DNA of 39,500 nucleotides from Escherichia phage Baskent_phicoli_1. The translations under genes and the position numbers were made by a program. The notes beneath the pieces were generated by a model that had not been told where the DNA came from, did not search any database, and saw only the letters and a program-made list of their open reading frames with translations. Position 1 is the first letter of the stretch; each line of letters opens with the position of its first letter. The stretch is taken from sequence record PP766721.1; one strand, written 5' to 3'. Of the stretch, positions 5,244-32,080 are shown in pieces.

Positions 5244-6293
5244 ATGGCAAACGTTCCGGGTCAGAAAATTGGTACAGACCAAGGTAAAGGCAAATCTAGT
5301 TCCGACGCTCTGGCGTTGTTCCTGAAGGTCTTTGCTGGTGAAGTCCTGACCGCATTCACTCGCCGCTCTGTAACGGCTGACAAGCATATTGTCCGTACCA
5401 TTCAGAACGGTAAGTCTGCTCAGTTCCCGGTCATGGGTCGCACCTCTGGTGTGTATCTGGCTCCCGGTGAGCGACTGTCCGATAAGCGTAAAGGTATCAA
5501 ACATACCGAGAAAGTGATTACCATTGATGGTCTGCTGACTGCCGATGTGATGATTTTCGACATTGAAGACGCGATGAACCACTATGACGTGGCTGGCGAG
5601 TACTCCAACCAGTTGGGTGAAGCTCTGGCTATCGCTGCTGATGGTGCGGTTCTGGCTGAAATGGCTCTCCTGTGTAACCTCCCGGCCGCATCCAACGAGA
5701 ATATTGCCGGTCTGGGCACTGCGTCAGTACTTGAAGTTGGTACTAAAGCCGACCTGAACACTCCGGCTAAGCTGGGTGAAGCAATCATCGGTCAACTGAC
5801 CATTGCTCGTGCGAAGCTGACCTCCAACTACGTTCCTGCTGGCGACCGATACTTCTACACCACGCCGGACAACTACTCTGCAATCCTCGCGGCTCTGATG
5901 CCGAACGCTGCTAACTATGCTGCGCTGATTGACCCAGAGACTGGCAACATCCGTAACGTGATGGGCTTCGTTGTTGTTGAGGTCCCGCATCTGGTGCAGG
6001 GTGGTGCTGGTGAGACCCGTGGTGACGATGGTATCTCTATCGCCTCCGGTCAGAAACACGCATTCCCGGCGACTGCTGCTGGCGACGTTAAAGTTGCTAT
6101 GGACAACGTTGTGGGTCTGTTCTCTCACCGTTCTGCTGTGGGTACTGTGAAGCTGCGTGACTTGGCGCTGGAACGTGACCGTGACGTCGATGCTCAGGGC
6201 GACCTGATTGTTGGTAAGTACGCTATGGGTCACGGTGGTCTGCGTCCTGAAGCAGCGGGCGCACTGGTTTTCACAGCAGCGTCAGCGGGTTAA
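5244..6293 (+). CDS. gp10A: Major capsid protein 10A
   Basis: 349 aa; LALFLKVFxGEVLTAF, KSAQFPV, KHTEKVITIDGLLTADV, EDAMNHYDV, LMPNAANYAALIDPE, RNVMGF, HRSAVGTVKLRDLALER, KYAMGHGGLRPEAAGA match T7 gp10A. Confidence 0.97.
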   Translation: MANVPGQKIGTDQGKGKSSSDALALFLKVFAGEVLTAFTRRSVTADKHIVRTIQNGKSAQFPVMGRTSGVYLAPGERLSDKRKGIKHTEKVITIDGLLTADVMIFDIEDAMNHYDVAGEYSNQLGEALAIAADGAVLAEMALLCNLPAASNENIAGLGTASVLEVGTKADLNTPAKLGEAIIGQLTIARAKLTSNYVPAGDRYFYTTPDNYSAILAALMPNAANYAALIDPETGNIRNVMGFVVVEVPHLVQGGAGETRGDDGISIASGQKHAFPATAAGDVKVAMDNVVGLFSHRSAVGTVKLRDLALERDRDVDAQGDLIVGKYAMGHGGLRPEAAGALVFTAASAG

Positions 6294-6556
6294 CGACCTT
6301 TAAGGCCCTCTCTACCGAGGGTCCTACCTTAGAGACGTATAGTTCTACGGTGGGAACCAGCTTGAAGGTTGACTTACCGGAGCTTTCAGATGTGACCGAC
6401 TGGTCGCTGCTTGATGTTACTACGCCTGATGGTGTTAGTTACTCCCGTAGAACCAACAGTCTCTACTTCAAGGCCACCTCTGGCGTGGAAGGTCTAGTGA
6501 TTGTTGAGTATGACGGTTCGCCTGTGCGTTCCTTCAACGTATCTTTCACAAACTAA
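6266..6556 (+). CDS. gp10B: Predicted -1 frameshift extension producing minor capsid protein 10B (slippery heptamer G GTT TTC at 6266-6272; -1 frame open to TAA 6554-6556)
   Basis: The -1 frame is open from 6251 across the 10A stop to 6556; heptamer sits 7 codons before the 10A stop, homologous to the T7 10A/10B site. Confidence 0.6.
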   Translation, partial: GFHSSVSGLTTFKALSTEGPTLETYSSTVGTSLKVDLPELSDVTDWSLLDVTTPDGVSYSRRTNSLYFKATSGVEGLVIVEYDGSPVRSFNVSFTN

Positions 6557-20569: not shown

Positions 20570-22333
20570 TTGAGTAAAGACTTAGTGGCGCGTCAGGCGC
20601 TAATGACTGCCCGTATGAAGGCAGACTTCGTGTTCTTCCTGTTCGTCCTGTGGAAAGCTCTGTCGCTCCCAGTCCCGACTCGCTGTCAGATTGACATGGC
20701 GAAGAAACTATCGGCTGGGGACAACAGGCGCTTCATCCTGCAGGCGTTCCGTGGTATCGGGAAGTCCTTCATTACGTGTGCCTTCGTTGTCTGGAAGCTA
20801 TGGAACAACCCAGACTTGAAGTTCATGATTGTGTCGGCCTCAAAGGAACGAGCCGATGCTAACTCCATCTTCATCAAGCGAATCATCGACCTCATGCCTC
20901 AGCTTCAGGAACTCAAACCTAAGCAGGGACAGCGAGATGCGGTTATCAGCTTCGACGTTGGACCAGCCAAGCCCGACCACTCACCTTCGGTTAAGTCCGT
21001 TGGTATCACTGGTCAGTTGACTGGTAGTCGTGCTGACATCCTGATTGCCGATGACGTGGAGGTCCCTAACAACTCAGCGACTCAGGCTGCACGAGACCGT
21101 CTGTCAGAGCTTGTGAAAGAGTTCGACGCTATCCTGAAGCCGGGAGGTACAATCATCTATCTGGGTACTCCTCAGAACGAGATGACCTTGTATCGTGAGC
21201 TGGAAGGCCGTGGATACACCACTACTATCTGGCCTGCTCGTTATCCACGCGATAAGAAGGACTGGCAGTCTTACGGCGACCGTCTGGCACCGATGCTTCA
21301 GGCAGAGCTGGAAGAGGACCCTGAGTCCTTCTACTGGCGTCCGACTGATGAAGTACGCTTCGATGATACGGACCTGAAGGAACGTGAGCTGTCCTATGGT
21401 AAAGCTGGCTTCGCTCTACAGTTCATGCTTAACCCGAACCTTAGTGATGCCGAGAAGTACCCTCTGAAGCTCCGTGACCTTATCGTAGCAGACTTGGACC
21501 CAGCGTCCAGCCCAATGGTCTACCAATGGCTGCCAAACCCTCAGAACAAGCGTGAGGACGTCCCTAACGTTGGACTCATGGGTGACTCATACCACACGTA
21601 TCAGACTGTAGGTTCTGCCTTCAGTTCGTACACCCAGAAGATTCTGGTCATTGACCCTAGTGGTCGTGGTAAGGATGAAACTGGCTATGCGGTACTGTAC
21701 CAGCTCAACGGCTACATCTTCGCTATGGAAGTTGGTGGTATGCGTGGTGGTTATGAAGACTCTACGCTGGAAGCTCTGGCTAAGATTGGTCGTAAGTGGA
21801 AGGTCAACGAATACGTCATTGAGGGTAACTTCGGTGATGGTATGTACCTTGAGCTATTCAAGCCCGTAGCAGCCCGTATCCACCCTGCTGCTGTAACTGA
21901 AGTGAAGAGTAAGGGTCAGAAAGAACTCCGCATCTGTGACGTTCTGGAGCCTATCATGGGGTCTCACCGACTTATCGTTAACGCTGCTGCTATCGTCCAA
22001 GACTACCAGTCGGCCTCTGATAAGGATGGTGTTCGTAACCCTATCTACTCTCTCTTCTACCAGATGACACGTATCTCTCGTGAACGTGGAGCCTTGGCAC
22101 ACGATGACAGACTTGATGCGCTGGCTATCGGTGTACAGTTCTTCGTTGAGTCTATGGCTAAGGATGCCAACAAAGGCGAACGTGAAGTCACTGAGGAGTG
22201 GCTGGAGGAACAGATGGAGAACCCACGGAAAGGCTTCGAGTCCATCCACACTGAGTTCTGGGACAATGGGGTCCGGGTAACTCACGATACGGACGACGAG
22301 CTGGGGCTAGGGTCCTACGTTACGTTTCACTAG
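20570..22333 (+). CDS. gp19: Terminase large subunit (DNA maturase B), gene 19; apparent TTG start
   Basis: 587 aa; [23 protein letters not shown], [76 protein letters not shown], [25 protein letters not shown] essentially as in T7 gp19; AAGGAGG SD 7 nt before TTG. Confidence 0.97.
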
Positions 22334-22427
22334 CTGAATGAATAACTATGGGTGAAAGCTGCATGAATACGCAGTTAGTAACCTATGGTTACAACCAGGC
22401 TAACCTACTGTTTTATAAGAAGTTTGG

Positions 22428-22450
22428 ACTTAACTATCACTATAGGGAAG
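22428..22450 (+). promoter_or_regulatory. Phage RNAP promoter (phiOR-like), +1 G about 22445
   Basis: CTTAACTATCACTATAGGGAAG downstream of terminase gene. Confidence 0.75.
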
Positions 22451-22630
22451 ACCCCCGGTTACTTATAGTATTACTGTAGTGAATATACATATGCAGACTT
22501 TATGCAAGACCTTAGGAGGCAGACTCCGAGTTCTTACCTAAGGCTTGCACCGATGGAAGGAGGGTGATATTAATAATAATCCCTCCAATACAGATAGTCA
22601 CCGACCATAGATACAGGAGGTATGTAGCAT

Positions 22631-22789
22631 ATGGCAAAGACCAAAGCTGTACTTAAAGCTCTGGCGACCAATCGAGCTACATACAGGTTTCTTGCTGCTG
22701 TTCTACTTGCTGCTGGCGTTACTGCTGGAAGTAAGTGGGTCGGGTGGGTCGAGACTCTCGTATGTTCTCTGGTGTCTGAGTGTCATTAA
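22631..22789 (+). CDS. gp19.5: gp19.5 homolog (small membrane protein)
   Basis: 52 aa ORF below the ORF-track cutoff; RxTYRFL, hydrophobic core and SLESVVCS-like end resemble T7 gp19.5; AGGAGG SD. Confidence 0.65.
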   Translation: MAKTKAVLKALATNRATYRFLAAVLLAAGVTAGSKWVGWVETLVCSLVSECH

Positions 22790-22949
22790 CGCCATAATGG
22801 TAACAATCAACGAAAGTAAGACCTAAGGTCAGTTCATAGCTGACGCTACTCTACTGACCTTAGCTACTGTAGTCAAGGACTTTAGGTAACACCTTAAGAG
22901 AAGCTCACTTAGGGTCATCCTACTTATTGGTCTATCCTAGTGTCGCCTG

Positions 22950-22987
22950 ACCTACGGTCCTTGACCTACAGTGGCTGTGGCCTACAG
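22950..22987 (+). repeat. CCTAC(G/A)G heptamer repeats just inside the inferred right genome end
   Basis: CCTACGG...CCTACAG...CCTACAG read directly; analogous to T7 CCTAAAG repeats near the terminal repeat. Confidence 0.55.
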
Positions 22988-23026
22988 TAGTGACGATGAG
23001 TTTTGGACCAAAAGTTTGAGACCACA

Positions 23027-23210
23027 TCTCACAGTTCAAGAACCTCAAGTCTCCCCATAGGCCCTCTTTCAGTCCAGACCAAAGGCCCTACCCAGTCTAT
23101 CATAAGGTTGGACCGATGGTCAAGACTTCAGGTCAACGATAGGTTGAGGCTATGGCTGGAGGTCGGGACGATAGGTTGGGACTATGGGTCTGTCTCTGAG
23201 TCTCTATCTG
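23027..23210 (+). repeat. Inferred left genome end and direct terminal repeat (collapsed to one copy here)
   Basis: TCTCACAGTTCAAGAACC...CCCCATAGG matches the T7 left end TCTCACAGTGTACGGACC...CCCCCATAGGGGG; the 3' boundary of the repeat is a guess. Confidence 0.45.
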
Positions 23211-23240
23211 TATAGTGTTATAGTATAACATTACGTCCTA

Positions 23241-23310
23241 CACCTACAGTCTCACTACCTACAGTCTCCGACCATGAGACACTCACTACCTACAGTCATA
23301 GACCTACAGA
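23241..23310 (+). repeat. Array of four (A)CCTACAG(T) heptamer repeats downstream of the terminal repeat
   Basis: ACCTACAGTCTC, CTACCTACAGTCTCC, CTACCTACAGTCAT, GACCTACAGATAA read directly. Confidence 0.6.
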
Positions 23311-23422
23311 TAATAGACATAAAGCTATAGACTTAAGGTCTAAGACATGTTAGTCAAAAGACTACATCCTCTTACACCATGGGGCCGACGATAGCTTAAT
23401 TAATATTATTTCAAATTACCTA

Positions 23423-23452
23423 TTGACTATAGGTCTAGACTGTGGCTTAATA
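23423..23452 (+). promoter_or_regulatory. Host sigma70-type early promoter (A1-like)
   Basis: TTGACT at 23423-23428, 17-bp spacer, CTTAAT; AT-rich UP-like tract upstream; T7 A1 also has TTGACT. Confidence 0.55.
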
Positions 23453-23563
23453 GCTTCCGTCAACACGACACGGCAACAACCGGATAGTGAAGACGCCGGG
23501 TCATCCCGGTTAAGTAGACAGCCTGATAAGTCATACGAACAACAGGCAGATGACAGAAAGTAG

Positions 23564-23593
23564 TTGACAAGCAGTAACGACTTAAAGTAGTAT
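23564..23593 (+). promoter_or_regulatory. Host sigma70-type early promoter (A2-like)
   Basis: TTGACA at 23564-23569, 18-bp spacer, TAGTAT; flanks match the T7 A2 region (ACAGGxxTTGACAA). Confidence 0.6.
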
Positions 23594-23711
23594 GTACCAC
23601 GTAGCAAGATGGCGTAGGGATAGGAACCGAGAAACCTGCCAGAGGCCAGCCAAGGATAAGGCACCAGCCGTGAGTCGAATTCGGTCACTCACCGCATAAA
23701 AGAATAACAGG

Positions 23712-23740
23712 TTGACAGCCTCCTTTAAAAGCTGTAAGCT
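23712..23740 (+). promoter_or_regulatory. Host sigma70-type early promoter (A3-like)
   Basis: TTGACA at 23712-23717, 17-bp spacer, TAAGCT; downstream CCACATCGAAACGACGGTGA matches T7 A3 context CCACATGAAACGACAGTGA. Confidence 0.6.
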
Positions 23741-23941
23741 GTGCCACATCGAAACGACGGTGAAGCCTAACACTGAAACAGGCTAGCACGGCGACGACAG
23801 CCAATGCGAATGCTCTTTAACAATCTGGATAAACTCTTAATGTGCGCCGATAGCGACTAACTACAGGGTCTTTGAGTCTACATCTGAAGGCCCTGACTGA
23901 TAGTCACTAACATACACAAACAACTTTGAGAGGATATAACT

Positions 23942-24277
23942 ATGGAACGTAACGCTAACGCATACTATGAGCTGCTGGCTGCAACCGTTGAAGCATTTAA
24001 CGAGAGCATTCAGTACGACAAAATAGCTGAAGGTGATGACTACAGCGATGCGCTGCATGAAGTCGTAGACAGTCATGTTCCGCACTATTACCACGAGATT
24101 TTCACGGTGATGGCTGCTGATGGTATTGACCATGAGTTCGAAGACTCTGGGCTGATGCCTGAGACCAAGGACGTAACGCGTATACTACAAGCTCGCATTT
24201 ATGAAGCACTGTATAACGATGTATCTAATAGCTCGGATGTAGTCTGGTTCGAGTCTACTGAGGAGGAATGCGAGTGA
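23942..24277 (+). CDS. ocr: Ocr (gene 0.3) DNA-mimic anti-restriction protein
   Basis: 111 aa, very acidic; VPHYYxxIFxVMAxxGIDxEFEDSGLMPxTKDVxRILQARIYE nearly identical to T7 Ocr. Confidence 0.92.
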   Translation: MERNANAYYELLAATVEAFNESIQYDKIAEGDDYSDALHEVVDSHVPHYYHEIFTVMAADGIDHEFEDSGLMPETKDVTRILQARIYEALYNDVSNSSDVVWFESTEEECE

Positions 24278-24429
24278 TGGTAACTTATGGCCTATGCCAG
24301 CACCACGTCACCAACGCCCGGCTTATGGTCAAGACCGGGCAGTTAAACCACGATGCGATTATGCGTCACCTGAAGGCGGTCTATGAGGGCCGCAAGCGTA
24401 TACACGACAGTTTGCACGCTGAGGTGTAA
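24277..24429 (+). CDS. Small early protein at gene 0.4 position (50 aa)
   Basis: ORF below track cutoff, ATG overlapping ocr stop (TGATG); function unassigned. Confidence 0.4.
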   Translation: MVTYGLCQHHVTNARLMVKTGQLNHDAIMRHLKAVYEGRKRIHDSLHAEV

Positions 24430-24456
24430 CTTACTGGCGGGTACTGAGTGATAAAT

Positions 24457-24490
24457 GAGAGGTCATCGACTGATAGGTGGCCTCAAAGAT
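24457..24490 (+). promoter_or_regulatory. Conserved structured element (putative RNase III site, R0.5-like)
   Basis: GAGAGGTCAT-N11-GTGGCCTCAAAGATTA, variant of the AGGTCAT...GTGGCCTT element. Confidence 0.45.
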
Positions 24491-24517
24491 TACCACTTGC
24501 ATTAATAGGAGTTAACT

Positions 24518-24685
24518 ATGAAATTTACAATCATCGCACTTTATGTAACCATTATTCTATCTTGGCTTACTGCGGTGCTCACTGATGGGAACGCATTACG
24601 ACTGGGATGGCTGGCAGTGGACATTATATTCTCTCCGGTAGGGGTCGTGCGGGGCATCTTGATGTGGTTTGGATTGGTGGGATAA
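24518..24685 (+). CDS. Small hydrophobic early protein (55 aa, predicted membrane)
   Basis: MKFTIIALYVTIILSWLTAVL... with AGGAG SD 6 nt upstream; below track cutoff. Confidence 0.4.
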   Translation: MKFTIIALYVTIILSWLTAVLTDGNALRLGWLAVDIIFSPVGVVRGILMWFGLVG

Positions 24686-24774
24686 ACTATGAGTATTGGA
24701 CATTGGGTATGCCTAGCGCCAGTTATCTCGATGATAGGTTATGGGATATATGATTGTATTAAACGGAAATCACT

Positions 24775-24972
24775 ATGAGTCTTGCACTATTGATAGCCAT
24801 AGGATATGGACTTATCGCCTACGTGCTGATGAGAGACATCAACAAAGCGCGTAAAGTCTACAAATTCAACTATGTACGGCTGGGCCGCTGGACTGTACGT
24901 CAACCTAACGGACGATTCATGCGAAACTTAGCGAACGTCTGGGACATAGCAACTCTGGGAGGTAAACTGTGA
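24775..24972 (+). CDS. Small early protein with N-terminal TM helix (65 aa)
   Basis: MSLALLIAIGYGLIAYVLM then basic tail; coupled upstream and downstream. Confidence 0.5.
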   Translation: MSLALLIAIGYGLIAYVLMRDINKARKVYKFNYVRLGRWTVRQPNGRFMRNLANVWDIATLGGKL

Positions 24973-25397
24973 TGGAAAAGCTATGCAGAACATGCCACGC
25001 TTTAAAGCCGCTGGAAGAGTACCACAAGCATAAAACCTCCAAAGACGGCAGGGAGAGTCAGTGTAAGACTTGCCGCAATAAGCAGATTATGAAGACCAGG
25101 AAACTACGATACAGTAAGTCTGCTAGCTTCAGGGAGTCTAAACGGAACGAAACCCTGCGTAAACTGTACGGGATTACAGTAGATGACTATGAGGAGATGT
25201 TTAAGCGGCAGGGCGGGGTGTGCGCTATCTGTCATCAGCCGGAAACTGGTAACATACGAATGGCGGTAGACCACTGTCATGCAAGTGGTAAAGTTCGCGG
25301 GCTACTGTGTAAAAACTGCAACACTGCGCTAGGAAACCTAAAAGACTCGATTGAGATTCTCACAAACGCAATCACATATCTTCAGGAGAACAATTAA
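24969..25397 (+). CDS. Endonuclease VII-family (HNH-fold) nuclease, probable homing endonuclease
   Basis: 142 aa; GGVCAICHQPETGNIRMAVDHCHASGKVRGLLCKNCNTALG aligns with T4 endonuclease VII GKCLICQREL...HLDHDHELNGPKAGKVRGLLCNLCNAAEG; extra N-terminal CxxC...CxxC. Confidence 0.8.
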   Translation: MMEKLCRTCHALKPLEEYHKHKTSKDGRESQCKTCRNKQIMKTRKLRYSKSASFRESKRNETLRKLYGITVDDYEEMFKRQGGVCAICHQPETGNIRMAVDHCHASGKVRGLLCKNCNTALGNLKDSIEILTNAITYLQENN

Positions 25398-25399
25398 TA

Positions 25400-25708
25400 A
25401 TGAGCAAGTCAAACGGTCTGGCATACGCAATGGTGGTAGCAATGGAAGAAGCAATCATGGCCCGTAAGTCCCGCTCTGAACGCGAACAAGCGGAGCGTGA
25501 TATGGTCCTGACTAAGCGCATGTTGGCTGAGGGCCACAAGGTAGACACCATGATTTATGTCTACGGGTCCACCAACATGAAGTCTGAAGACGGTAAGCTG
25601 CTGCTGGCAGGTAGACGGGCTGACATCCAACGGGCAAGCCTGAAGCACACGACACGCGGTGACTTCAGTCATCTTCACGCTAACCAACTGATATGCAAGC
25701 AATTCTGA
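25400..25708 (+). CDS. Hypothetical early protein (102 aa)
   Basis: ORF with compact spacing after the Endo VII-like gene; no motif recognised. Confidence 0.55.
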   Translation: MSKSNGLAYAMVVAMEEAIMARKSRSEREQAERDMVLTKRMLAEGHKVDTMIYVYGSTNMKSEDGKLLLAGRRADIQRASLKHTTRGDFSHLHANQLICKQF

Positions 25709-25730
25709 CTTAACTATCACTATAGGACTC
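25708..25730 (+). promoter_or_regulatory. Phage RNAP promoter immediately upstream of the RNAP gene, +1 G about 25725
   Basis: CTTAACTATCACTATAGGACTC, one or two mismatches to the window consensus, 75 bp before gene 1 ATG. Confidence 0.65.
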
Positions 25731-25799
25731 AAGGTCTAAGACTCCAAGTGAAAGACCAAAGAGACTTTAAGTGAAAGACTAATAACAAGGACTTTAAGT

Positions 25800-28481
25800 A
25801 TGAGCGTCATCTCTATTGACAAACACGACTTCTCTGATGTGTCAAACGCCATTGAGCCGTTTAACCTGCTGGCCGACCACTACGGGCAAGACCTTGCAGT
25901 CAAACAGCTTCAGCTTGAGCATGAGGCATACACTGAAGGCGAGCGACGTTTCATCAAAAACCTTGAGCGACAGACTGAGCGCGGGGAACTGGCAGACAAT
26001 CAGGTCGCCAAGCCTTTGATGCAGACTCTGGTTCCTAAGATTGCGCAAGCCGTCAGGGAGTGGCACGAAGGTCCAGACGGGAAGCTGTCAACCTCTCGTC
26101 CGAGCGTAGCGTTCACCATGTTGAGCACTGAAGAGAAGGCCGTCAAGGACCGCTCTATGCGTATCTCCTGTGAGTCTGCTGCGGTCATCATACTGAAGGT
26201 CATACTCTCCAAGCTGGTCAAGCCTGAAGGTATACCGATTACACCGATGGCCTCAGCGATAGGTCGCACACTTGAGGACGAAATCCGCTTCGGTCGCATC
26301 CGTGACAAGGAGAAGGAGCATTTCAAGAAGGCGATAGCTGAGAACTTGAACAAGCGAGCTGGGGTATCCTACAAGAAAGCCTACATGCAAGCTGTCGAGG
26401 CATCCATGCTGGAGCAAGGCCAACTGGAAGATGCATGGGGAACTTGGAGTCCGACCGAGGCTGTCCACGTTGGAATCAAGATGCTTGAGATCGTCATCCA
26501 GTCAACACAGCTGGTCGAGCTTAAGCGTTATGGTGCTGGCAATGCAGCAGCTGACGTCGAGATGGTCCACCTGACAGACTTCTGGGTCAAGAAGATGGCA
26601 CAACGAGGATTCAGCCTTGCGGGTATCGCTCCAGTCTACCAGCCTTGCGTAGTTCCACCTAAGCCGTGGACTGGTGTAGTGGGAGGTGGATACTGGGCCA
26701 AAGGTCGCAGACCGTTGCCATTGATTCGCTTAGGGTCTAAGTCTGCGGTGGCACGTTATGAAGACGTATACATGCCTGAAGTCTATGACGCTGTGAATAT
26801 CATCCAGAATACACCTTGGAAAGTGAACAAGAAGGTTCTGGACGTGGTGAACATGGTCGAGAAGTTGAACAACACGCCTATTGATGACATCCCTCAGATG
26901 GAGCCACTGAAGCCTGAAGACTATGCGGGCGAGACTGAAGAGGAACTCAAGGCATGGAAGAAAGCTGCTGCTGGTATCTACCGCCGAGAGAAGGCCCGGC
27001 AGTCACGCAGATTGTCACTAAGCTTTATCGTCAACCAAGCGAACAAATTCTCTCAGTTCAAGGCCATCTGGTTCCCGTACAACATGGACTGGCGCGGACG
27101 CGTCTACGCTGTTCCGATGTTCAACCCTCAGGGTAACGACATGCAAAAAGGGCTCCTTACTCTGGCAGTCGGCAAGCCCATTGGTGCCGATGGTTTTAAA
27201 TGGCTGAAGGTCCACGGTGCAAACTGCGCGGGTATTGATAAAGTCACCTTCGAGGAGCGCATCAAGTGGGTGGAAGACAACCACGACAACATCATGGCTG
27301 CTGCTAAGGCACCGATGGACAGCATTGAGTGGTGGGGAAAGTTAGACTCTCCATTCTGCTTCCTAGCGTTCTGCTTCGAGTATGCTGGCGTAATGCACCA
27401 CGGATTGTCTTACTCCTGCTCGCTGCCGATAGCGTTCGATGGGTCATGCTCTGGGATTCAACACTTTAGCGCGATGCTTCGTGATCACATCGGTGGACAT
27501 GCAGTAAACCTGACGCCTTCAGGTAAGGTCCAAGACATCTACCGCATCGTGTCTGACCGCATTGAGGAAGAGCTTAAAGTCCTGCTGGTTAAGGGCACGG
27601 ACAACGAGGTGGTCACTCACGAGGACAAGAAAACTGGTGAGATTACCGAACGTCTCAAGCTGGGGACACGAGAGCTGGCCCGTCAGTGGCTGACTTACGG
27701 TATGTCACGCAAGGTCACTAAGCGCTCAGTCATGACTCTGGCCTACGGGTCGAAAGAGTATGGCTTCGCAGACCAAGTTTACGAGGACATCGTGATGCCA
27801 GCGATTGACTCAGGGTCTGGCGCTATGTTCACCGAACCAAGCCAAGCGTCCCGCTTCATGGCTAAGATGATTTGGGAAGCTGTGAGCGTGACCGTAGTTG
27901 CTGCTGTTGACGCGATGAAGTGGCTTCAGGGTGCTGCCAAGCTGCTGGCTGCTGAAGTGAAGGACAAGAAGACTGGAGAAATCCTGAAGCCTTGCCTTCC
28001 GGTACACTGGGTCACACCTGATGGTTTCCCTGTCTGGCAGGAATACCGCAAGAAGGATACCACTCGTCTGAACCTGATGTTCTTAGGGTCATTCAACCTT
28101 CAACCTACGGTCAACAAGGGCACGAAGAAAGAGCTGGACAAGCACAAGCAGGAGTCAGGCATTAGCCCGAACTTCGTCCACTCACAAGATGGGAGCCACC
28201 TACGCAAGACTGTAGTCCACACTCACCGCAAGTATGGTGTTATGTCATTCGCAGTGATTCACGATAGCTTCGGGACCATCCCGGCTGACGCTGAGTATCT
28301 GTTCCGTGGTGTCCGTGAGACGATGGTCGAGACCTACCGCGACAACGACGTGCTGCTTGACTTCTACGAGCAGTTCGAATACCAGCTTCATGAGAGCCAG
28401 CGCGACAAGTTGCCCGAGCTTCCGAAGAAAGGTAAACTGAACATCGAAGACATTCTGTCTTCAGACTTTGCATTCGCTTAA
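25800..28481 (+). CDS. gp1: Single-subunit DNA-dependent RNA polymerase, gene 1
   Basis: 893 aa; collinear with T7 RNAP throughout (NxAKxDFSD, PFNxLADHYG, FPYNMDWRGRVYAV, MFNPQGNDMxKGLLTLA, DGSCSGIQHFSAMLRD, VTKRSVMTLAYGSKE, VHWVTPDGFPVWQEY, HKQESGIxPNFVHSQDGSHLRKTV, IHDSFGTIPADA, FAFA C-terminus). Confidence 0.98.
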   Translation: MSVISIDKHDFSDVSNAIEPFNLLADHYGQDLAVKQLQLEHEAYTEGERRFIKNLERQTERGELADNQVAKPLMQTLVPKIAQAVREWHEGPDGKLSTSRPSVAFTMLSTEEKAVKDRSMRISCESAAVIILKVILSKLVKPEGIPITPMASAIGRTLEDEIRFGRIRDKEKEHFKKAIAENLNKRAGVSYKKAYMQAVEASMLEQGQLEDAWGTWSPTEAVHVGIKMLEIVIQSTQLVELKRYGAGNAAADVEMVHLTDFWVKKMAQRGFSLAGIAPVYQPCVVPPKPWTGVVGGGYWAKGRRPLPLIRLGSKSAVARYEDVYMPEVYDAVNIIQNTPWKVNKKVLDVVNMVEKLNNTPIDDIPQMEPLKPEDYAGETEEELKAWKKAAAGIYRREKARQSRRLSLSFIVNQANKFSQFKAIWFPYNMDWRGRVYAVPMFNPQGNDMQKGLLTLAVGKPIGADGFKWLKVHGANCAGIDKVTFEERIKWVEDNHDNIMAAAKAPMDSIEWWGKLDSPFCFLAFCFEYAGVMHHGLSYSCSLPIAFDGSCSGIQHFSAMLRDHIGGHAVNLTPSGKVQDIYRIVSDRIEEELKVLLVKGTDNEVVTHEDKKTGEITERLKLGTRELARQWLTYGMSRKVTKRSVMTLAYGSKEYGFADQVYEDIVMPAIDSGSGAMFTEPSQASRFMAKMIWEAVSVTVVAAVDAMKWLQGAAKLLAAEVKDKKTGEILKPCLPVHWVTPDGFPVWQEYRKKDTTRLNLMFLGSFNLQPTVNKGTKKELDKHKQESGISPNFVHSQDGSHLRKTVVHTHRKYGVMSFAVIHDSFGTIPADAEYLFRGVRETMVETYRDNDVLLDFYEQFEYQLHESQRDKLPELPKKGKLNIEDILSSDFAFA

Positions 28482-28493
28482 CAGGAGAGAGTT

Positions 28494-28709
28494 ATGAAAT
28501 TTGCACACAAGCAGACTGGCGTTAAGGGTGGGACTCAAATCGTTACCGTAACAGAACACAACGGCAAGGGTCTGGTGAAGACCACAATCATCCCTACCGA
28601 GATGTCAAAGCAGCTTAACATCCCGTTCAAGACTCTTGTATATCTGGTCGAGTCCAGCCACGAGAAGTACCTGAAGGACGCAGTGTCCAAGCTGGAGCAG
28701 GCAAAATGA
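28494..28709 (+). CDS. Hypothetical early protein (71 aa)
   Basis: ORF 13 bp after gene 1 with AGGAG SD; no phage promoter between it and gene 1. Confidence 0.55.
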   Translation: MKFAHKQTGVKGGTQIVTVTEHNGKGLVKTTIIPTEMSKQLNIPFKTLVYLVESSHEKYLKDAVSKLEQAK

Positions 28710-28783
28710 CATACCTACAGTTACTGGCCATGTGGCTGGGAGCACTTGCAGTATTCACTTTAATCCAACGAAGAAGAGGTTAA
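28706..28783 (+). CDS. Tiny hydrophobic peptide (25 aa), tentative
   Basis: MTYLQLLAMWLGALAVFTLIQRRRG; ATG overlaps preceding stop (ATGA). Confidence 0.3.
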   Translation: MTYLQLLAMWLGALAVFTLIQRRRG

Positions 28784-28787
28784 CCCT

Positions 28788-29258
28788 ATGTTCGGTAAGT
28801 CAAAACTTAAAGCACAAATCAAAGAGTTGAGCATGAAGGTGGCATACTTGGAGCGAGCCATAAAGGTACGGGACTATGACAACGAGAGACTGAAGGCTAA
28901 ACTTGCTGAATCAGAGCGTAAGCGCCTAACGCCACCAGCGGCTGTAACTGTCAAGCGTATGGTCGGCATCAAGTTCAAGGCACTGTTCGACGGTAAGTAT
29001 CAACCGACTGAGTTCAAGACAGGCCCGGGACCATGTGGCAAGACGGTGACGCACTTCACCATAAGTTGGACAGAGCGAAGTATGACCGTCCACCAGCATC
29101 ATACGGATGGCTCTCAGAAGGACTTCGTGTACCGACTGAGCGACATCGACGGTCGAATACAGTATGACTACGAGCAAGTTAAAATCTACGGAGAAGAGGC
29201 CAAACGTGAGTCAGCGCTTCAGGCATTCATGCGGATAGGGCCGCGCATCCTATTCTAA
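28788..29258 (+). CDS. Hypothetical early protein (156 aa), helical/charged N-terminus
   Basis: ORF with GAAGAGG SD; absent from T7 at this position. Confidence 0.6.
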   Translation: MFGKSKLKAQIKELSMKVAYLERAIKVRDYDNERLKAKLAESERKRLTPPAAVTVKRMVGIKFKALFDGKYQPTEFKTGPGPCGKTVTHFTISWTERSMTVHQHHTDGSQKDFVYRLSDIDGRIQYDYEQVKIYGEEAKRESALQAFMRIGPRILF

Positions 29259-29276
29259 ACTATCACTATAGGATTA
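29254..29276 (+). promoter_or_regulatory. Phage RNAP promoter (phi1.1-like), +1 G about 29271
   Basis: TAAACTATCACTATAGGATT. Confidence 0.75.
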
Positions 29277-29318
29277 GACTCAAGGTCATGACTCAAAGTC
29301 GTGGCCTTCATGATTAAC
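29273..29318 (+). promoter_or_regulatory. Conserved structured element (putative RNase III site, R1.1-like)
   Basis: TAGACTCAAGGTCAT-N11-GTGGCCTTCATGATTA. Confidence 0.55.
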
Positions 29319-29366
29319 CCTGTAGCAAAGCTACTACCTAACGTAAACTACTGGAGATTTAACCAC

Positions 29367-29546
29367 ATGTATCAAAACACTATCAACTTCGAGCGCATCC
29401 GTGAACGTCAGCAGACTGAAGGTTACATTCCTAAGGGCCGCAAGCTGAACAAGACTAAACGTGGTGGTGGTATCAAAGGCGCTTTCCGAAACGCTGAAGG
29501 TAAAGACTCTCTGGTCAACCAAGAGAAATACTTCGTAGGAGTGTAA
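29367..29546 (+). CDS. gp1.1: gp1.1-like small basic protein (ORF-track start 29301 lies inside the RNase III-like element; ATG 29367 preferred)
   Basis: KGRKLNKTKR motif as in remembered T7 gp1.1; start choice is inference. Confidence 0.55.
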   Translation: MYQNTINFERIRERQQTEGYIPKGRKLNKTKRGGGIKGAFRNAEGKDSLVNQEKYFVGV

Positions 29547-29549
29547 GCC

Positions 29550-29801
29550 ATGAGTAAACGTTGGTTATTCGACGCATCCCCGAGCCAGTGGTCAGTGTTA
29601 GGCCGGACTCACCGCGAGATGAGTGAGGCAGGACTTGATGTCCTAATGGATGACTCGCCGTGCTCCGGAAAAACTCTGGTCAGAATAATTGAAGCAGACG
29701 GTGGGAGGTTTCTGGTCTCCAGAGAATTTACCGAAGATGAAATCTTTAGCTGTGAGCAATGGTGCTTACAACAATTGAACGCTTATAGGAGCTGGAAATA
29801 A
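29550..29801 (+). CDS. gp1.2: gp1.2-like protein (dGTPase inhibitor position)
   Basis: 83 aa, same size and position as T7 gp1.2, ends ...WK; similarity is weak by eye. Confidence 0.5.
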   Translation: MSKRWLFDASPSQWSVLGRTHREMSEAGLDVLMDDSPCSGKTLVRIIEADGGRFLVSREFTEDEIFSCEQWCLQQLNAYRSWK

Positions 29802-30919
29802 TGACAACTATTAAAACCAACCCGCACCGCGCTGTAGATTACTCTGAGTATGGCATTAAGAAGGCGCTGGAAGCAGCCGGGTCTCTGGAAGCTGAAGTGA
29901 AGTACGATGGTGTGCGGTTGAACCTTCCAGTATTCCCAACAGGAGAGACCCAATGGTTGAGCCGTGAGTCCAAAGAGCTTCCAGCGCTTCAGCATCTGAA
30001 GTCAGAACATGGGAGTCCTACCGAATTAACAAACTGTGGAGACTGGCGATGGTTCCTTAAACAGGCTGGCTACGAAGGTACGGGCCTGATGATTGACGGT
30101 GAGGTCATGGTTCCTGCAACCGACTTCAACACTTCCTCAGGTCTAGTCCGTACCATGTGGTCAGACACTAAGAACTACGCTTGGAATGGCAACCCAGATG
30201 CTGACATCGACACCAAGAAGAAGCATAAGGTCCCTTTCCATCTGGCAACCGACCACATCCGTGTGGTTGTCTACGGTATCGTAGACCTTAACGTCATCAA
30301 CGACCCGAAAGCAGAAGGACCTATCCATAGCGTAACCCGCCTGAAGGCCGAAGCTATCGTCCCTCTCCTGCAGAAATACTTCCCGGAAATCGACTGGGTT
30401 CTGTCTGAGTCACACACGGTCTATGACCTTGAGTCGCTCAACTCCCTGTACGAAGAGAAGCGTCTGGAAGGACATGAGGGTCTGGTAGTCAAGGACCCAC
30501 TTGGTAAATACAAGCGTGGCAAGAAGTCTGGTATGTGGAAAATGAAGCCTGAAGACACCATTGACGGTATCGTGGTCGGACTGAATTGGGGGACTGAAGG
30601 TCTCGCAAACGAAGGTAAAGTGATTGGGTTCGACGTACTGCTTGAGAACGGTATGGTAGTGGCCGCTAACAATATCTCTCAGGCCCTGATGGATGAGTTC
30701 ACCGAAGCGGTTAAAGCTGAACGTGCCTATATTTGGAATGACTGCATGACTGATATTGAGCGGGAAGAATGTGATGATGAATGTCTTGAGGATGTGAACC
30801 CCTACAAAGGACATCAATGCGAAGTCTCCTACATGGAGATGACACCAGATGGTTCCTTACGTCACCCTAGCTTCAAGTGCTGGCGCGGGACGGAAGATAA
30901 CCCGACCATTAAGAGCTAA
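29801..30919 (+). CDS. gp1.3: ATP-dependent DNA ligase, gene 1.3
   Basis: 372 aa; IKTNP, AExKYDGVR (active-site lysine motif), EGHEGLxVKDP, YKRGKKSGxWKMKPE, WGTxGLANEGKVIGFxVLLE, TPDGSLRHPSF, RGTEDNP match T7 ligase. Confidence 0.95.
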   Translation: MTTIKTNPHRAVDYSEYGIKKALEAAGSLEAEVKYDGVRLNLPVFPTGETQWLSRESKELPALQHLKSEHGSPTELTNCGDWRWFLKQAGYEGTGLMIDGEVMVPATDFNTSSGLVRTMWSDTKNYAWNGNPDADIDTKKKHKVPFHLATDHIRVVVYGIVDLNVINDPKAEGPIHSVTRLKAEAIVPLLQKYFPEIDWVLSESHTVYDLESLNSLYEEKRLEGHEGLVVKDPLGKYKRGKKSGMWKMKPEDTIDGIVVGLNWGTEGLANEGKVIGFDVLLENGMVVAANNISQALMDEFTEAVKAERAYIWNDCMTDIEREECDDECLEDVNPYKGHQCEVSYMEMTPDGSLRHPSFKCWRGTEDNPTIKS

Positions 30920-30928
30920 CTAAATGTC

Positions 30929-30960
30929 AACCCAGTGGTCTTAGGACTACTGGGTTTCTT
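30929..30960 (+). terminator. Intrinsic terminator (TE-like) after the ligase gene
   Basis: AACCCAGT...ACTGGGTT 8-bp stem with 12-nt loop followed by TCTTT; same position as T7 TE. Confidence 0.7.
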
Positions 30961-30983
30961 TACGTCTAGGACACCAGCTAGAC

Positions 30984-31006
30984 CCTAAGCTATCACTATA
31001 GGACAA
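30984..31006 (+). promoter_or_regulatory. Phage RNAP promoter variant, +1 G about 31001
   Basis: CTAAGCTATCACTATAGGACAA (G at -12). Confidence 0.65.
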
Positions 31007-31030
31007 CCATCAACAACCTAAGGAGACTCT

Positions 31031-31291
31031 ATGTCTAAGAACTTAATGTTCAACCGTTATTCCAATACCTTCCACCTGTCCAACAACCCGTTCGCTTGCA
31101 TTAAGAGAAACGAGAAGCTGGGCTACTTCGGTAAGGCCGTTAAGCTGTCACCTACAGTATTCGCTCTGATTACTCCGGGCAAAGCTGAAGAGGCTCGCCA
31201 GAAGCGTGAGACAAATGTGCCCGTGGTCTACACCAAGTGGCCCCGCGTTCGTCTGTTCGTTGAGTTCGTGAAGGAGGTGATAAATGATTAA
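31031..31291 (+). CDS. Hypothetical protein (gene 1.4-1.6 region)
   Basis: 86 aa ORF with AAGGAG SD; synteny only. Confidence 0.55.
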   Translation: MSKNLMFNRYSNTFHLSNNPFACIKRNEKLGYFGKAVKLSPTVFALITPGKAEEARQKRETNVPVVYTKWPRVRLFVEFVKEVIND

Positions 31292-31727
31292 GGTGGGGGA
31301 TATAGTTAAATATGTTGGACCAATTAACACCCACAGAGGACGCTCATGTGGCAAGGTGATAATGGTTAAAAATGAGCACATAGCTGTTGTTAAGTGGCCC
31401 CGTTTATCTGAACCACTTAGTCACTCCATTAGTGCCTTAAGTATTACCAATCAGGATCAGGCCGAGCCGACAACCGTAGGTCATGAAGATATCGTCCGCA
31501 AGCCATCCCACTATCAGGTCTTTGACGGTGTTGAGTCCATTGAGATTATAGCTCGGTCCATGACCATGAGCGAGTTCCGTGGGTTCTGCATGGGTAACGT
31601 CCTGAAGTATCGACTACGGGCTGGTAAGAAGTCCGAGCTGGCTACTATGGAGAAGGACCTGAACAAAGCAGCCTTCTATCAGGAGCTGTTCGACCTGCAT
31701 AAAGGTAAGTGCTATGCTGCCGAGTGA
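31284..31727 (+). CDS. gp1.7: Nucleotide kinase gp1.7 homolog
   Basis: C-terminal half KPSHYxxFDxxExIExIARSMTxxxFxGxCxGNxLKYRLRAGKKSELAxxEKDLxKAxFYxELFxxHKxKCYA matches T7 gp1.7. Confidence 0.8.
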   Translation: MIKVGDIVKYVGPINTHRGRSCGKVIMVKNEHIAVVKWPRLSEPLSHSISALSITNQDQAEPTTVGHEDIVRKPSHYQVFDGVESIEIIARSMTMSEFRGFCMGNVLKYRLRAGKKSELATMEKDLNKAAFYQELFDLHKGKCYAAE

Positions 31728-31921
31728 GTGGTGCCGGGGGATGTATGAGAAGACTCTCAACCCAGACTACATTACGTTATACAACCAATGGAAGGAGCGC
31801 GGTTTATGAACCAAGACCAGATTAACTTTGTGTGTCAGCTTATTAAGGAGTTCGTGGACTTCACTGATTTATCCGAAGATGAACTTGTTAAGCTGGAAGA
31901 GATTCTAGACAAGGAGATTTT

Positions 31922-32080
31922 ATGAGTGACGCCGAGAAGAAATACATCGTTGAGCTTGAGGGCCGCACTCAGTACTTCGAGGTTCCTGTGTACGCAAAGT
32001 CTCTTGAAGAGGCTACCCTGAAGTCCCAAGAGTATGAGGACGCTGGGTTTGTGGTCGGACGGATTCGTCCTGAGACCTAA
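31922..32080 (+). CDS. gp2: Host RNA polymerase inhibitor gp2 homolog
   Basis: 52 aa ORF below track cutoff; [13 protein letters not shown]...[10 protein letters not shown] matches T7 Gp2 FEVPIYAETLDEA...AGFEVTRVRP; AAGGAG SD. Confidence 0.75.

Follow-up and report, generated by a model that had tools for sequence, protein, structure and literature searches.

The gene 1.05 region of a Kayfunavirus genome and a predicted membrane peptide resembling a detached gp1.05 anchor

What occupies the junction between the RNA polymerase (RNAP) gene and the next phage promoter in Escherichia phage Baskent_phicoli_1, and do the genes found there act together? In T7, this interval (gene 1 to gene 1.1) holds only the promoters phi1.1A and phi1.1B and no gene 1.05, whereas in the DNA analysed here (sequence record PP766721.1; the whole stretch of 39,500 nucleotides (nt) is referred to as the window) a first-pass annotation, made from the letters alone, had placed three open reading frames (ORFs) of 71, 25 and 156 amino acids (aa) and had noted their absence from T7. 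Both statements held, and the coordinates were exact in the ORF list. By sequence, the window is a circularly permuted Kayfunavirus (K1F/EcoDS1-like) genome of the Autographiviridae, Studiervirinae; megablast searches with the three-ORF region and with the whole early region found ~93% identity to Escherichia phage Bas105 and 84–91% identity to Klebsiella phage SEA1f, EcoDS1, Hafnia phage yong1 and Citrobacter phage SH3. The new point to emerge concerns the smallest of the three, the 25-aa ORF, which looks like a conserved, unannotated membrane peptide resembling a detached anchor of the protein encoded next to it, gp1.05. The genes at issue are as follows.

25800..28481, + strand: gene 1, T7-type single-subunit RNA polymerase, 893 aa (ORF list; RNA polymerase annotation of relatives)
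28494..28709, + strand: 71-aa ORF (ORF list)
28706..28783, + strand: 25-aa ORF, MTYLQLLAMWLGALAVFTLIQRRRG (ORF list)
28788..29258, + strand: gp1.05, 156 aa (ORF list, PF25755, PHROG 8103)

Three small genes and a predicted membrane peptide

Are these ORFs genes at all? Shine–Dalgarno sequences can be read from the sequence 6 nt ahead of the ATG of the 71-aa ORF (AGGAG, 28483–28487) and 8 nt ahead of that of gp1.05 (AGAGG, 28775–28779), and the start of the 25-aa ORF sits within the stop codon of the 71-aa ORF (ATGA, 28706–28709). The Shine–Dalgarno sites and ATGA-type coupling first described for the block were thus present, except that at the junction of the 25-aa ORF and gp1.05 the ATG follows the stop by 4 nt, which is close coupling with no ATGA overlap. 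We judge all three to be real, conserved genes, as far as sequence comparison can tell, because they are intact in every Kayfunavirus locus fetched and examined, and because their ratios of non-synonymous to synonymous divergence (pN/pS; pooled Nei–Gojobori estimates across relatives) are low: 0.16 for the 71-aa ORF, 0.28 for the 25-aa ORF and 0.18 for the gp1.05 domain.

Together the three ORFs would form an accessory cassette on the Kayfunavirus gene 1 message, without counterpart in T7 and partly common to T3, K11 and KP32-type phages. This cassette is the already catalogued, functionally uncharacterized ‘gene 1.05’ region of K1F/EcoDS1-like phages, whose 71-aa and 156-aa ORFs are annotated in EcoDS1 and many relatives. 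Direct orthologues are AS9_0008 and AS9_0009 of EcoDS1 (EU734172) and their equivalents in SEA1f, yong1, TM1, SH3 and ST31, and the EcoDS1 promoters and early terminator TE are in the same places. As first stated, then, the finding is ordinary, the ORFs being known, named and annotated in relatives. The cassette members are known, named, uncharacterized families, and the modest new points are the 25-aa peptide and its correspondence to the K11/KP32 anchor.

The 25-aa product consists of one hydrophobic helix followed by QRRRG and is predicted to be a single-pass membrane peptide with one transmembrane (TM) helix. Among relatives its ORF occurs, always intact and 25 codons long, in 25 distinct DNA versions, which encode 13 peptides; its start always overlaps the upstream stop (ATGA, or GTGA in one lineage), and all 13 peptides retain the hydrophobic core and a C-terminal Q(R/Q)RRG. 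Such conservation might reflect nucleic-acid signals, either the ribosome-binding site or coupling region of gp1.05 or an RNA structure, with no functional peptide being made. Two observations lean that way: the Shine–Dalgarno sequence of gp1.05 lies within the last 12 nt of the 25-aa ORF, and the ORF falls below gene-caller length and is annotated nowhere in the records examined. We nevertheless regard this explanation as improbable. Synonymous sites are as free to change here as in the neighbouring genes (pS 0.39, compared with 0.39 and 0.43), and non-synonymous change is suppressed in the peptide frame alone, with pN/pS at 0.28 in that frame against 1.18 in each of the two other frames. Moreover, none of the 25 distinct versions, the GTG-start version included, departs in length, start overlap or stop; the amino-acid replacements preserve the hydrophobicity of the helix; and an Rfam search of 22000–32000 returned no match. 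The ORF appears, on this evidence, to be under purifying selection as a peptide. It is unannotated in the five records checked (EcoDS1, SEA1f, yong1, Peacock and MBBL139), and one gain of the present analysis for annotation is the addition of this missed small gene to the Kayfunavirus genomes examined.

gp1.05 and its possible detached anchor

What, then, is the protein encoded 4 nt downstream? The first-pass annotation had recognized no motif in the 156-aa product and had suggested that it might be new, a suggestion that the sequence matches do not support. The protein matches Pfam PF25755 (Phage_T3_1_05) with 92.9 bits against a cut-off of 27 (E 1.2e-26; aa 58–128 on model positions 2–73 of 73), it also matches PHROG 8103, it shares 38% identity over 77 aa with T3 gp1.05 (NP_523302; BLASTP, E 5e-14), and its EcoDS1 orthologue is annotated gp1.05. 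By these sequence matches we take it to be gp1.05, a member of the PF25755 family, with 237 database relatives and EcoDS1-group orthologues at 80–92% identity. The 71-aa ORF is not new either, since it belongs to PHROG 8082 (see below).

The AF2 model of gp1.05 (predicted local distance difference test (pLDDT) score 85) consists of an N-terminal helix with a heptad pattern (aa 2–47), a six-strand beta domain (53–133) and a C-terminal helix (135–150). The protein starts MFGKSK, has no hydrophobic segment at its N-terminus, and carries the PF25755 motifs F-K-x-G-x-G-x-C-G-K and Q-x-(H/C)-T-D-G...K-x-F-x-Y...G-R. Within Kayfunavirus the invariant residues are F76, K77, G79, G81, C83, G84, K85, Q103, H105, D107, K111, F113, Y115 and G122; seven of them (G79, C83, G84, Q103, K111, F113 and G122) are invariant also in the alignments of the TM-type and coiled-coil-type proteins described below, whereas the other motif columns vary in at least one alignment (position 105 may be His or Cys, for example, and position 107 Asp or Asn). 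With C83 invariant and position 105 either His or Cys, a Cys/His metal site is a conceivable reading of the motifs.

Database searches beyond the family itself were uninformative as to function. Sequence-profile searches of the PDB with gp1.05 and the 71-aa protein found only coiled-coil or designed-repeat noise; a BFVD fold search with gp1.05 gave as significant matches (E ≤ 0.001) uncharacterized phage proteins only, almost all of them belonging to T7-like phages with a wide range of hosts; PADLOC and NCBIfam held no match for either protein; and Pfam returned the uncharacterized PF25755 as the sole family for gp1.05. Structure prediction and profile searches of the 156-aa and 71-aa proteins, which had been suggested with the first-pass annotation, therefore yielded models (pLDDT 85 and 82) but no informative fold match. 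In the literature on gp1.05, gene 1.05, PF25755 and Kayfunavirus early genes we found only genome-annotation tables, with no function reported. The label ‘microtubule-binding protein’, given to gp1.05 in yong1 and TM1, is unsupported: in the N-terminal region the only Pfam match (TMF_DNA_bd, E 0.28) is to a coiled coil and falls below threshold, and this coiled coil is probably what the label reflects.

An exhaustive profile search gave 165 representative PF25755 proteins, which fall into three architectures: the domain alone (75–100 aa, e.g. T3), a coiled coil followed by the domain, and an N-terminal TM helix followed by coiled coil and domain (160–220 aa). In the 77 loci from IMG/VR that we examined, the PF25755 gene starts 17–165 nt past the RNAP gene in 65, of which 59 are of the TM type, and in two others it directly precedes the RNAP gene. 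No RNAP gene was found nearby in nine loci, and in the five of these that were scanned the flanking genes encode DNA polymerase A and/or a 5'-3' exonuclease. Few uncharacterized genes of T7-like phages are as widely conserved as gene 1.05, which is present in hundreds of sequenced genomes and, in the sampled loci, lies mostly beside the RNAP gene. Isolated N-terminal fragments and domain-only forms of 99–131 aa are also found among the database relatives, and Escherichia phage Peacock has gp1.05 in two pieces, an N-terminal one of 38 aa and a domain-only ORF of 99 aa (L140 690–1151); such broken or partial forms may be either natural truncations or assembly errors. As for the members without a TM helix (T3 gp1.05, L139 218–487; L085; L123; P0253/P0255/P0304), the N-terminus is often rich in F, I and K and amphipathic-looking (e.g. 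T3 MINIKTFFKNIFKL, MFNFIKNIF), and from its composition this segment could be a peripheral membrane-binding helix.

This genomic position invites the idea that gp1.05 acts on the phage's own nucleic-acid transactions, for instance in modulating the phage RNAP, in the switch from class I to class II genes or in origin firing, and not on a host target. The PF25755 gene adjoins the RNAP gene, on either side, in 67 of the 77 loci, T3 gene 1.05 overlaps the annotated primary replication origin, and the gene of the high-GC relatives sits between those for DNA polymerase A and the 5'-3' exonuclease. On balance we find such a role decidedly unlikely, as T7 works without gene 1.05 despite having the same RNAP, promoter and origin logic, many members carry an N-terminal TM helix, which would be odd for a transcription or replication factor, and no nucleic-acid-binding fold or motif was detected.

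T3 gp1.05, which is likewise uncharacterized, shares with the protein described here the PF25755 beta domain and the slot between gene 1 and phi1.1/gene 1.1, but it is the domain alone (90 aa), whereas here there are an extra coiled coil and a C-terminal helix. T3 gene 1.05 also has its own phi1.05 promoter directly after gene 1, as have K11 and AP5, whereas gp1.05 of the window has no promoter of its own and is separated from gene 1 by two ORFs, which is a regulatory difference and not a protein difference. A further parallel is with K11, whose protein is annotated ‘gp1.05 fusion protein’ (ACF15838), with KP32 (‘fusion protein’) and with most Przondovirus-type phages. These have the same elements in the same order (TM helix, coiled coil, PF25755 domain) and in the same place, after gene 1 and before phi1.1. 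In K11 and KP32, however, the elements form one polypeptide with its own phi1.05 promoter, whereas here the TM helix has an ORF to itself, whose TAA stop precedes gp1.05 by 4 nt (3–5 nt in relatives), and the K11/KP32 and Kayfunavirus coiled coils cannot be aligned beyond their general character.

The best explanation, to which we give a probability of roughly 0.5, is that the Kayfunavirus 25-aa peptide and gp1.05 are the separately encoded halves of a K11/KP32-type gp1.05 and act together. We infer a split/fused gene pair because the TM helix (25-aa ORF) and then the coiled coil and domain (gp1.05) occur in the same place and the same order as in the fused proteins; the combined length of 25 + 156 = 181 aa may be compared with 185–190 aa for the latter. 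By the usual logic of split/fused gene pairs, the two products would probably act together. On such a model, the basic residues past the helix would keep the C-terminus of the peptide cytoplasmic, a gp1.05 dimer would be held by the peptide, or recruited by it, to the inner membrane on its cytoplasmic face, and the beta domain would there contact a target through its conserved loops. In most phages a TM helix and a coiled-coil stalk would keep the PF25755 domain near this face of the membrane, and in Kayfunavirus the anchor would be a separate peptide.

Could the two ORFs be joined during translation? A programmed ribosomal frameshift at the rare Arg codons at the end of the 25-aa ORF (CGA-AGA-AGA-GGT-TAA) would fuse it to gp1.05 and produce a K11-type chain. 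Tandem rare Arg codons are shift-prone sites, gp1.05 of the window is read in the +1 frame with respect to the 25-aa ORF, and the gp1.05 frame is open over the last 24 nt ahead of its ATG. The spacer between the peptide stop and the gp1.05 ATG is, however, 3, 4 or 5 nt in different relatives, so that the frame relation is not conserved, and the conserved ATG, Shine–Dalgarno sequence and N-terminal ‘MF’ of gp1.05 fit independent initiation. On the evidence of the variable spacer we rejected a +1 frameshift fusion, which seems far-fetched.

Several observations weigh against pairing the peptide with gp1.05 as two halves of one protein. First, 25 hydrophobic residues are too few to show homology with the TM segment of fused gp1.05, to which the peptide corresponds in position and architecture only; any N-terminal anchor would score alike against the peptide. 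Second, peptide variants do not co-vary with N-terminal variants of gp1.05, and anchorless forms with coiled coil and domain occur in two other lineages (L116 and L117) that belong to other genera. Third, T3 has the domain alone, which means that a membrane anchor is not obligatory for the PF25755 family, and in the high-GC relatives the domain gene, placed as it is between DNA polymerase A and the 5'-3' exonuclease, is away from the RNAP gene. Finally, the broken gp1.05 of Peacock indicates that the full-length form is dispensable, at least there, and the lack of any gene 1.05 in T7 weakens the idea of an essential membrane anchoring.

Some of these observations bear also on the kind of role to be expected. 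Because T3 has the domain alone, two coiled-coil lineages lack an anchor, Peacock gp1.05 is broken and T7 lacks the gene, a dispensable, host-dependent role suggests itself, and a dispensable host-interaction function is the most likely one; from the genomic neighbourhood, a host-takeover or anti-defence role is plausible. On the picture that fits best, gp1.05 would be a membrane-associated, probably dimeric accessory factor with the PF25755 beta domain as its business end. It is a more doubtful proposition that peptide and gp1.05 constitute a two-piece, membrane-tethered dimeric effector and that PF25755 is an unrecognized host-directed class acting at the inner membrane. If this were true, the targets of such an effector might be, for example, a defence sensor at the membrane, the machinery of division or elongation, or an exclusion system. 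That most members would be membrane-anchored, with the Kayfunavirus anchor a separate 25-residue peptide, gives a family so far without leads a concrete hypothesis in terms of membrane localization and a two-part complex.

The third member of the cassette, the 71-aa protein, is predicted from its model to be a small soluble protein (pLDDT 82; three strands, then two helices). It matches PHROG 8082, which has no function assigned, over its full length (E 3.4e-42; aa 1–66 on profile positions 1–66 of 66), and its 154 database relatives are all close and occur only in Kayfunavirus-type sequences, with orthologues in the EcoDS1, SEA1f, yong1, TM1, SH3 and ST31 group at 76–96% identity. The EcoDS1 orthologue (EU734172.1 5274–5489; L001 1839–2054) is labelled ‘gp1.1’, while the PF08200 gp1.1 homologue of that phage is a later gene (6127–6306); the label is probably a mistake of annotation, and one that could spread to other records. 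In EcoDS1 (L001 1598–1828) and L009/L113, unlike the window, one further ORF of 76 aa (MSMKLVAHNKAFNDGSGR...), for which neither Pfam nor PADLOC has a match, lies right after gene 1 and before the 71-aa ORF. The junction of gene 1 and gene 1.05 is an insertion hotspot.

An alternative that dispenses with the membrane altogether, and that follows the first-pass annotation in its emphasis on host takeover or anti-defence, is that at least one of the three proteins is a soluble stoichiometric inhibitor of a host enzyme or defence protein, of the kind of Ocr, gp0.4, gp1.2 and gp2, with the membrane peptide uninvolved. The genes lie in the early/class II accessory region near Ocr (PF08684), gp1.1 and the gp1.2 slot, the proteins are small and vary between lineages, and the site is an insertion hotspot, as the extra ORF of EcoDS1 and L009 illustrates. 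With Ocr, gp0.4, gp0.7, gp1.2 and gp2 of T7, all of them dispensable there, the cassette proteins have in common genomic neighbourhood, expression class and small size, but no sequence relationship or convincing fold relationship to any of them was found. Furthermore, PADLOC and NCBIfam were empty, as noted above, Pfam offered nothing for the 71-aa and 25-aa proteins and only PF25755 for gp1.05, a comparison of the 71-aa family with the gp1.2 profile (hhalign) gave a probability of 0.2%, and no experimental report was found in the literature. We therefore consider an inhibitor of this kind possible and somewhat unlikely. It would be compatible with the pairing of peptide and gp1.05, from which it differs by dropping the membrane link.

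Transcription of the block

By which polymerase is the block read? A search with the window's own phage-promoter core (CTATCACTATAGGA), allowing up to 3 mismatches, found ten strong sites in the window, two of which flank the block (starting at 25714 and 29260). The relevant signals are the following.

25708..25730, + strand: phage-RNAP promoter upstream of gene 1 (TTAACTATCACTATAGGACTCAA); exact core match, predicted +1 at 25725
29254..29276, + strand: phage promoter phi1.1, overlapping the 3' end of gp1.05; core search and EcoDS1 annotation at the same position, predicted +1 at 29271
29282..29308, + strand: 12-bp hairpin just downstream of phi1.1; fold of 29272–29366, −23.5 kcal/mol, z −2.9
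30926..30962, + strand: early terminator TE (GC-rich hairpin and U run), after the ligase gene; fold z −3.2, TE annotated at the same place in EcoDS1

The same core search found no phage promoter between 28481 and 29259, and no terminator-like site was found between gene 1 and 29259, which agrees with the earlier statement that no phage promoter separates the ORFs from gene 1. The three ORFs would accordingly share a transcription unit with gene 1. The curated EcoDS1 record has three host promoters at the left end, one phage promoter just before gene 1 and another that overlaps the gp1.05 end, and TE following the ligase gene, and we place the block of the window, by this correspondence, inside the early host-RNAP operon that runs from the host promoters to TE. 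A sigma-70-like site within gp1.05 (28876–28903, score 9/12) was treated as chance, the number of such sites in the region being that expected from shuffled sequence.

Early expression by host RNAP, as proposed in the first-pass annotation, is therefore only part of the picture, for there is a phage promoter 75 nt upstream of gene 1 as well. This site (25708..25730) has flanks like those of the other nine, shares a 19-nt direct repeat with the promoter at 29255–29273, and has an EcoDS1 equivalent annotated as ‘promoter phi’. Since a consensus promoter lies upstream of gene 1, the phage RNAP should read the block too, and host RNAP is probably not alone in transcribing it. The cassette would then be transcribed first by host RNAP, early and within the operon that ends at TE, and afterwards by phage RNAP from the pre-gene 1 promoter. 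T3 annotates the RNase III site R1.1 directly after its phi1.1 promoter, and the hairpin at 29282..29308 is probably an R1.1-type site at which the message of genes 1 to 1.05 ends; RNase III cleavage at this hairpin would leave the three genes on one mRNA with gene 1.

The pre-gene 1 promoter would also allow the phage polymerase to transcribe its own gene, a positive loop. No phage promoter is known just upstream of the RNAP gene in T7 or T3. Just past this promoter, the gene 1 leader (25739–25782) contains a tandem direct repeat of ~21 nt (AGACTCCAAGTGAAAGACCAA / AGACTTTAAGTGAAAGACTAA), and it folds no better than shuffled sequences (z −0.5).

Neighbouring genes and the gene 1.2 slot

The block is set among the following early genes of the window.

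23942–24277: Ocr gene (PF08684; Pfam match)
24969–25397: endonuclease VII-type gene, 142 aa (PF02945, E 1.8e-29)
Between the endonuclease VII-type gene and the promoter upstream of gene 1: 102-aa ORF of no assigned identity
29367–29546: gp1.1 homologue (PF08200), downstream of promoter phi1.1
Between gp1.1 and ligase: gp1.2-slot gene, matching the PHROG ‘dGTPase inhibitor’ family
29801–30919: ligase gene, followed by the terminator hairpin

The 142-aa endonuclease VII-type ORF, located between Ocr and gene 1 in the early region, probably encodes a homing-type endonuclease, to judge from its sequence. The gene 1.2 slot (window 29550–29801) contains, in an informal comparison by eye with close relatives (L002–L010), several sequence types: an 83-aa type in this window and L007 (PHROG 6515, ‘dGTPase inhibitor’), T7 gp1.2-like proteins of 87–95 aa in L002, L003, L004, L006 and L010, and an 86–91-aa ‘M(N/T)HYEL...’ type in L005 and L008. 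The slot thus looks like a swap site for alternative accessory genes.

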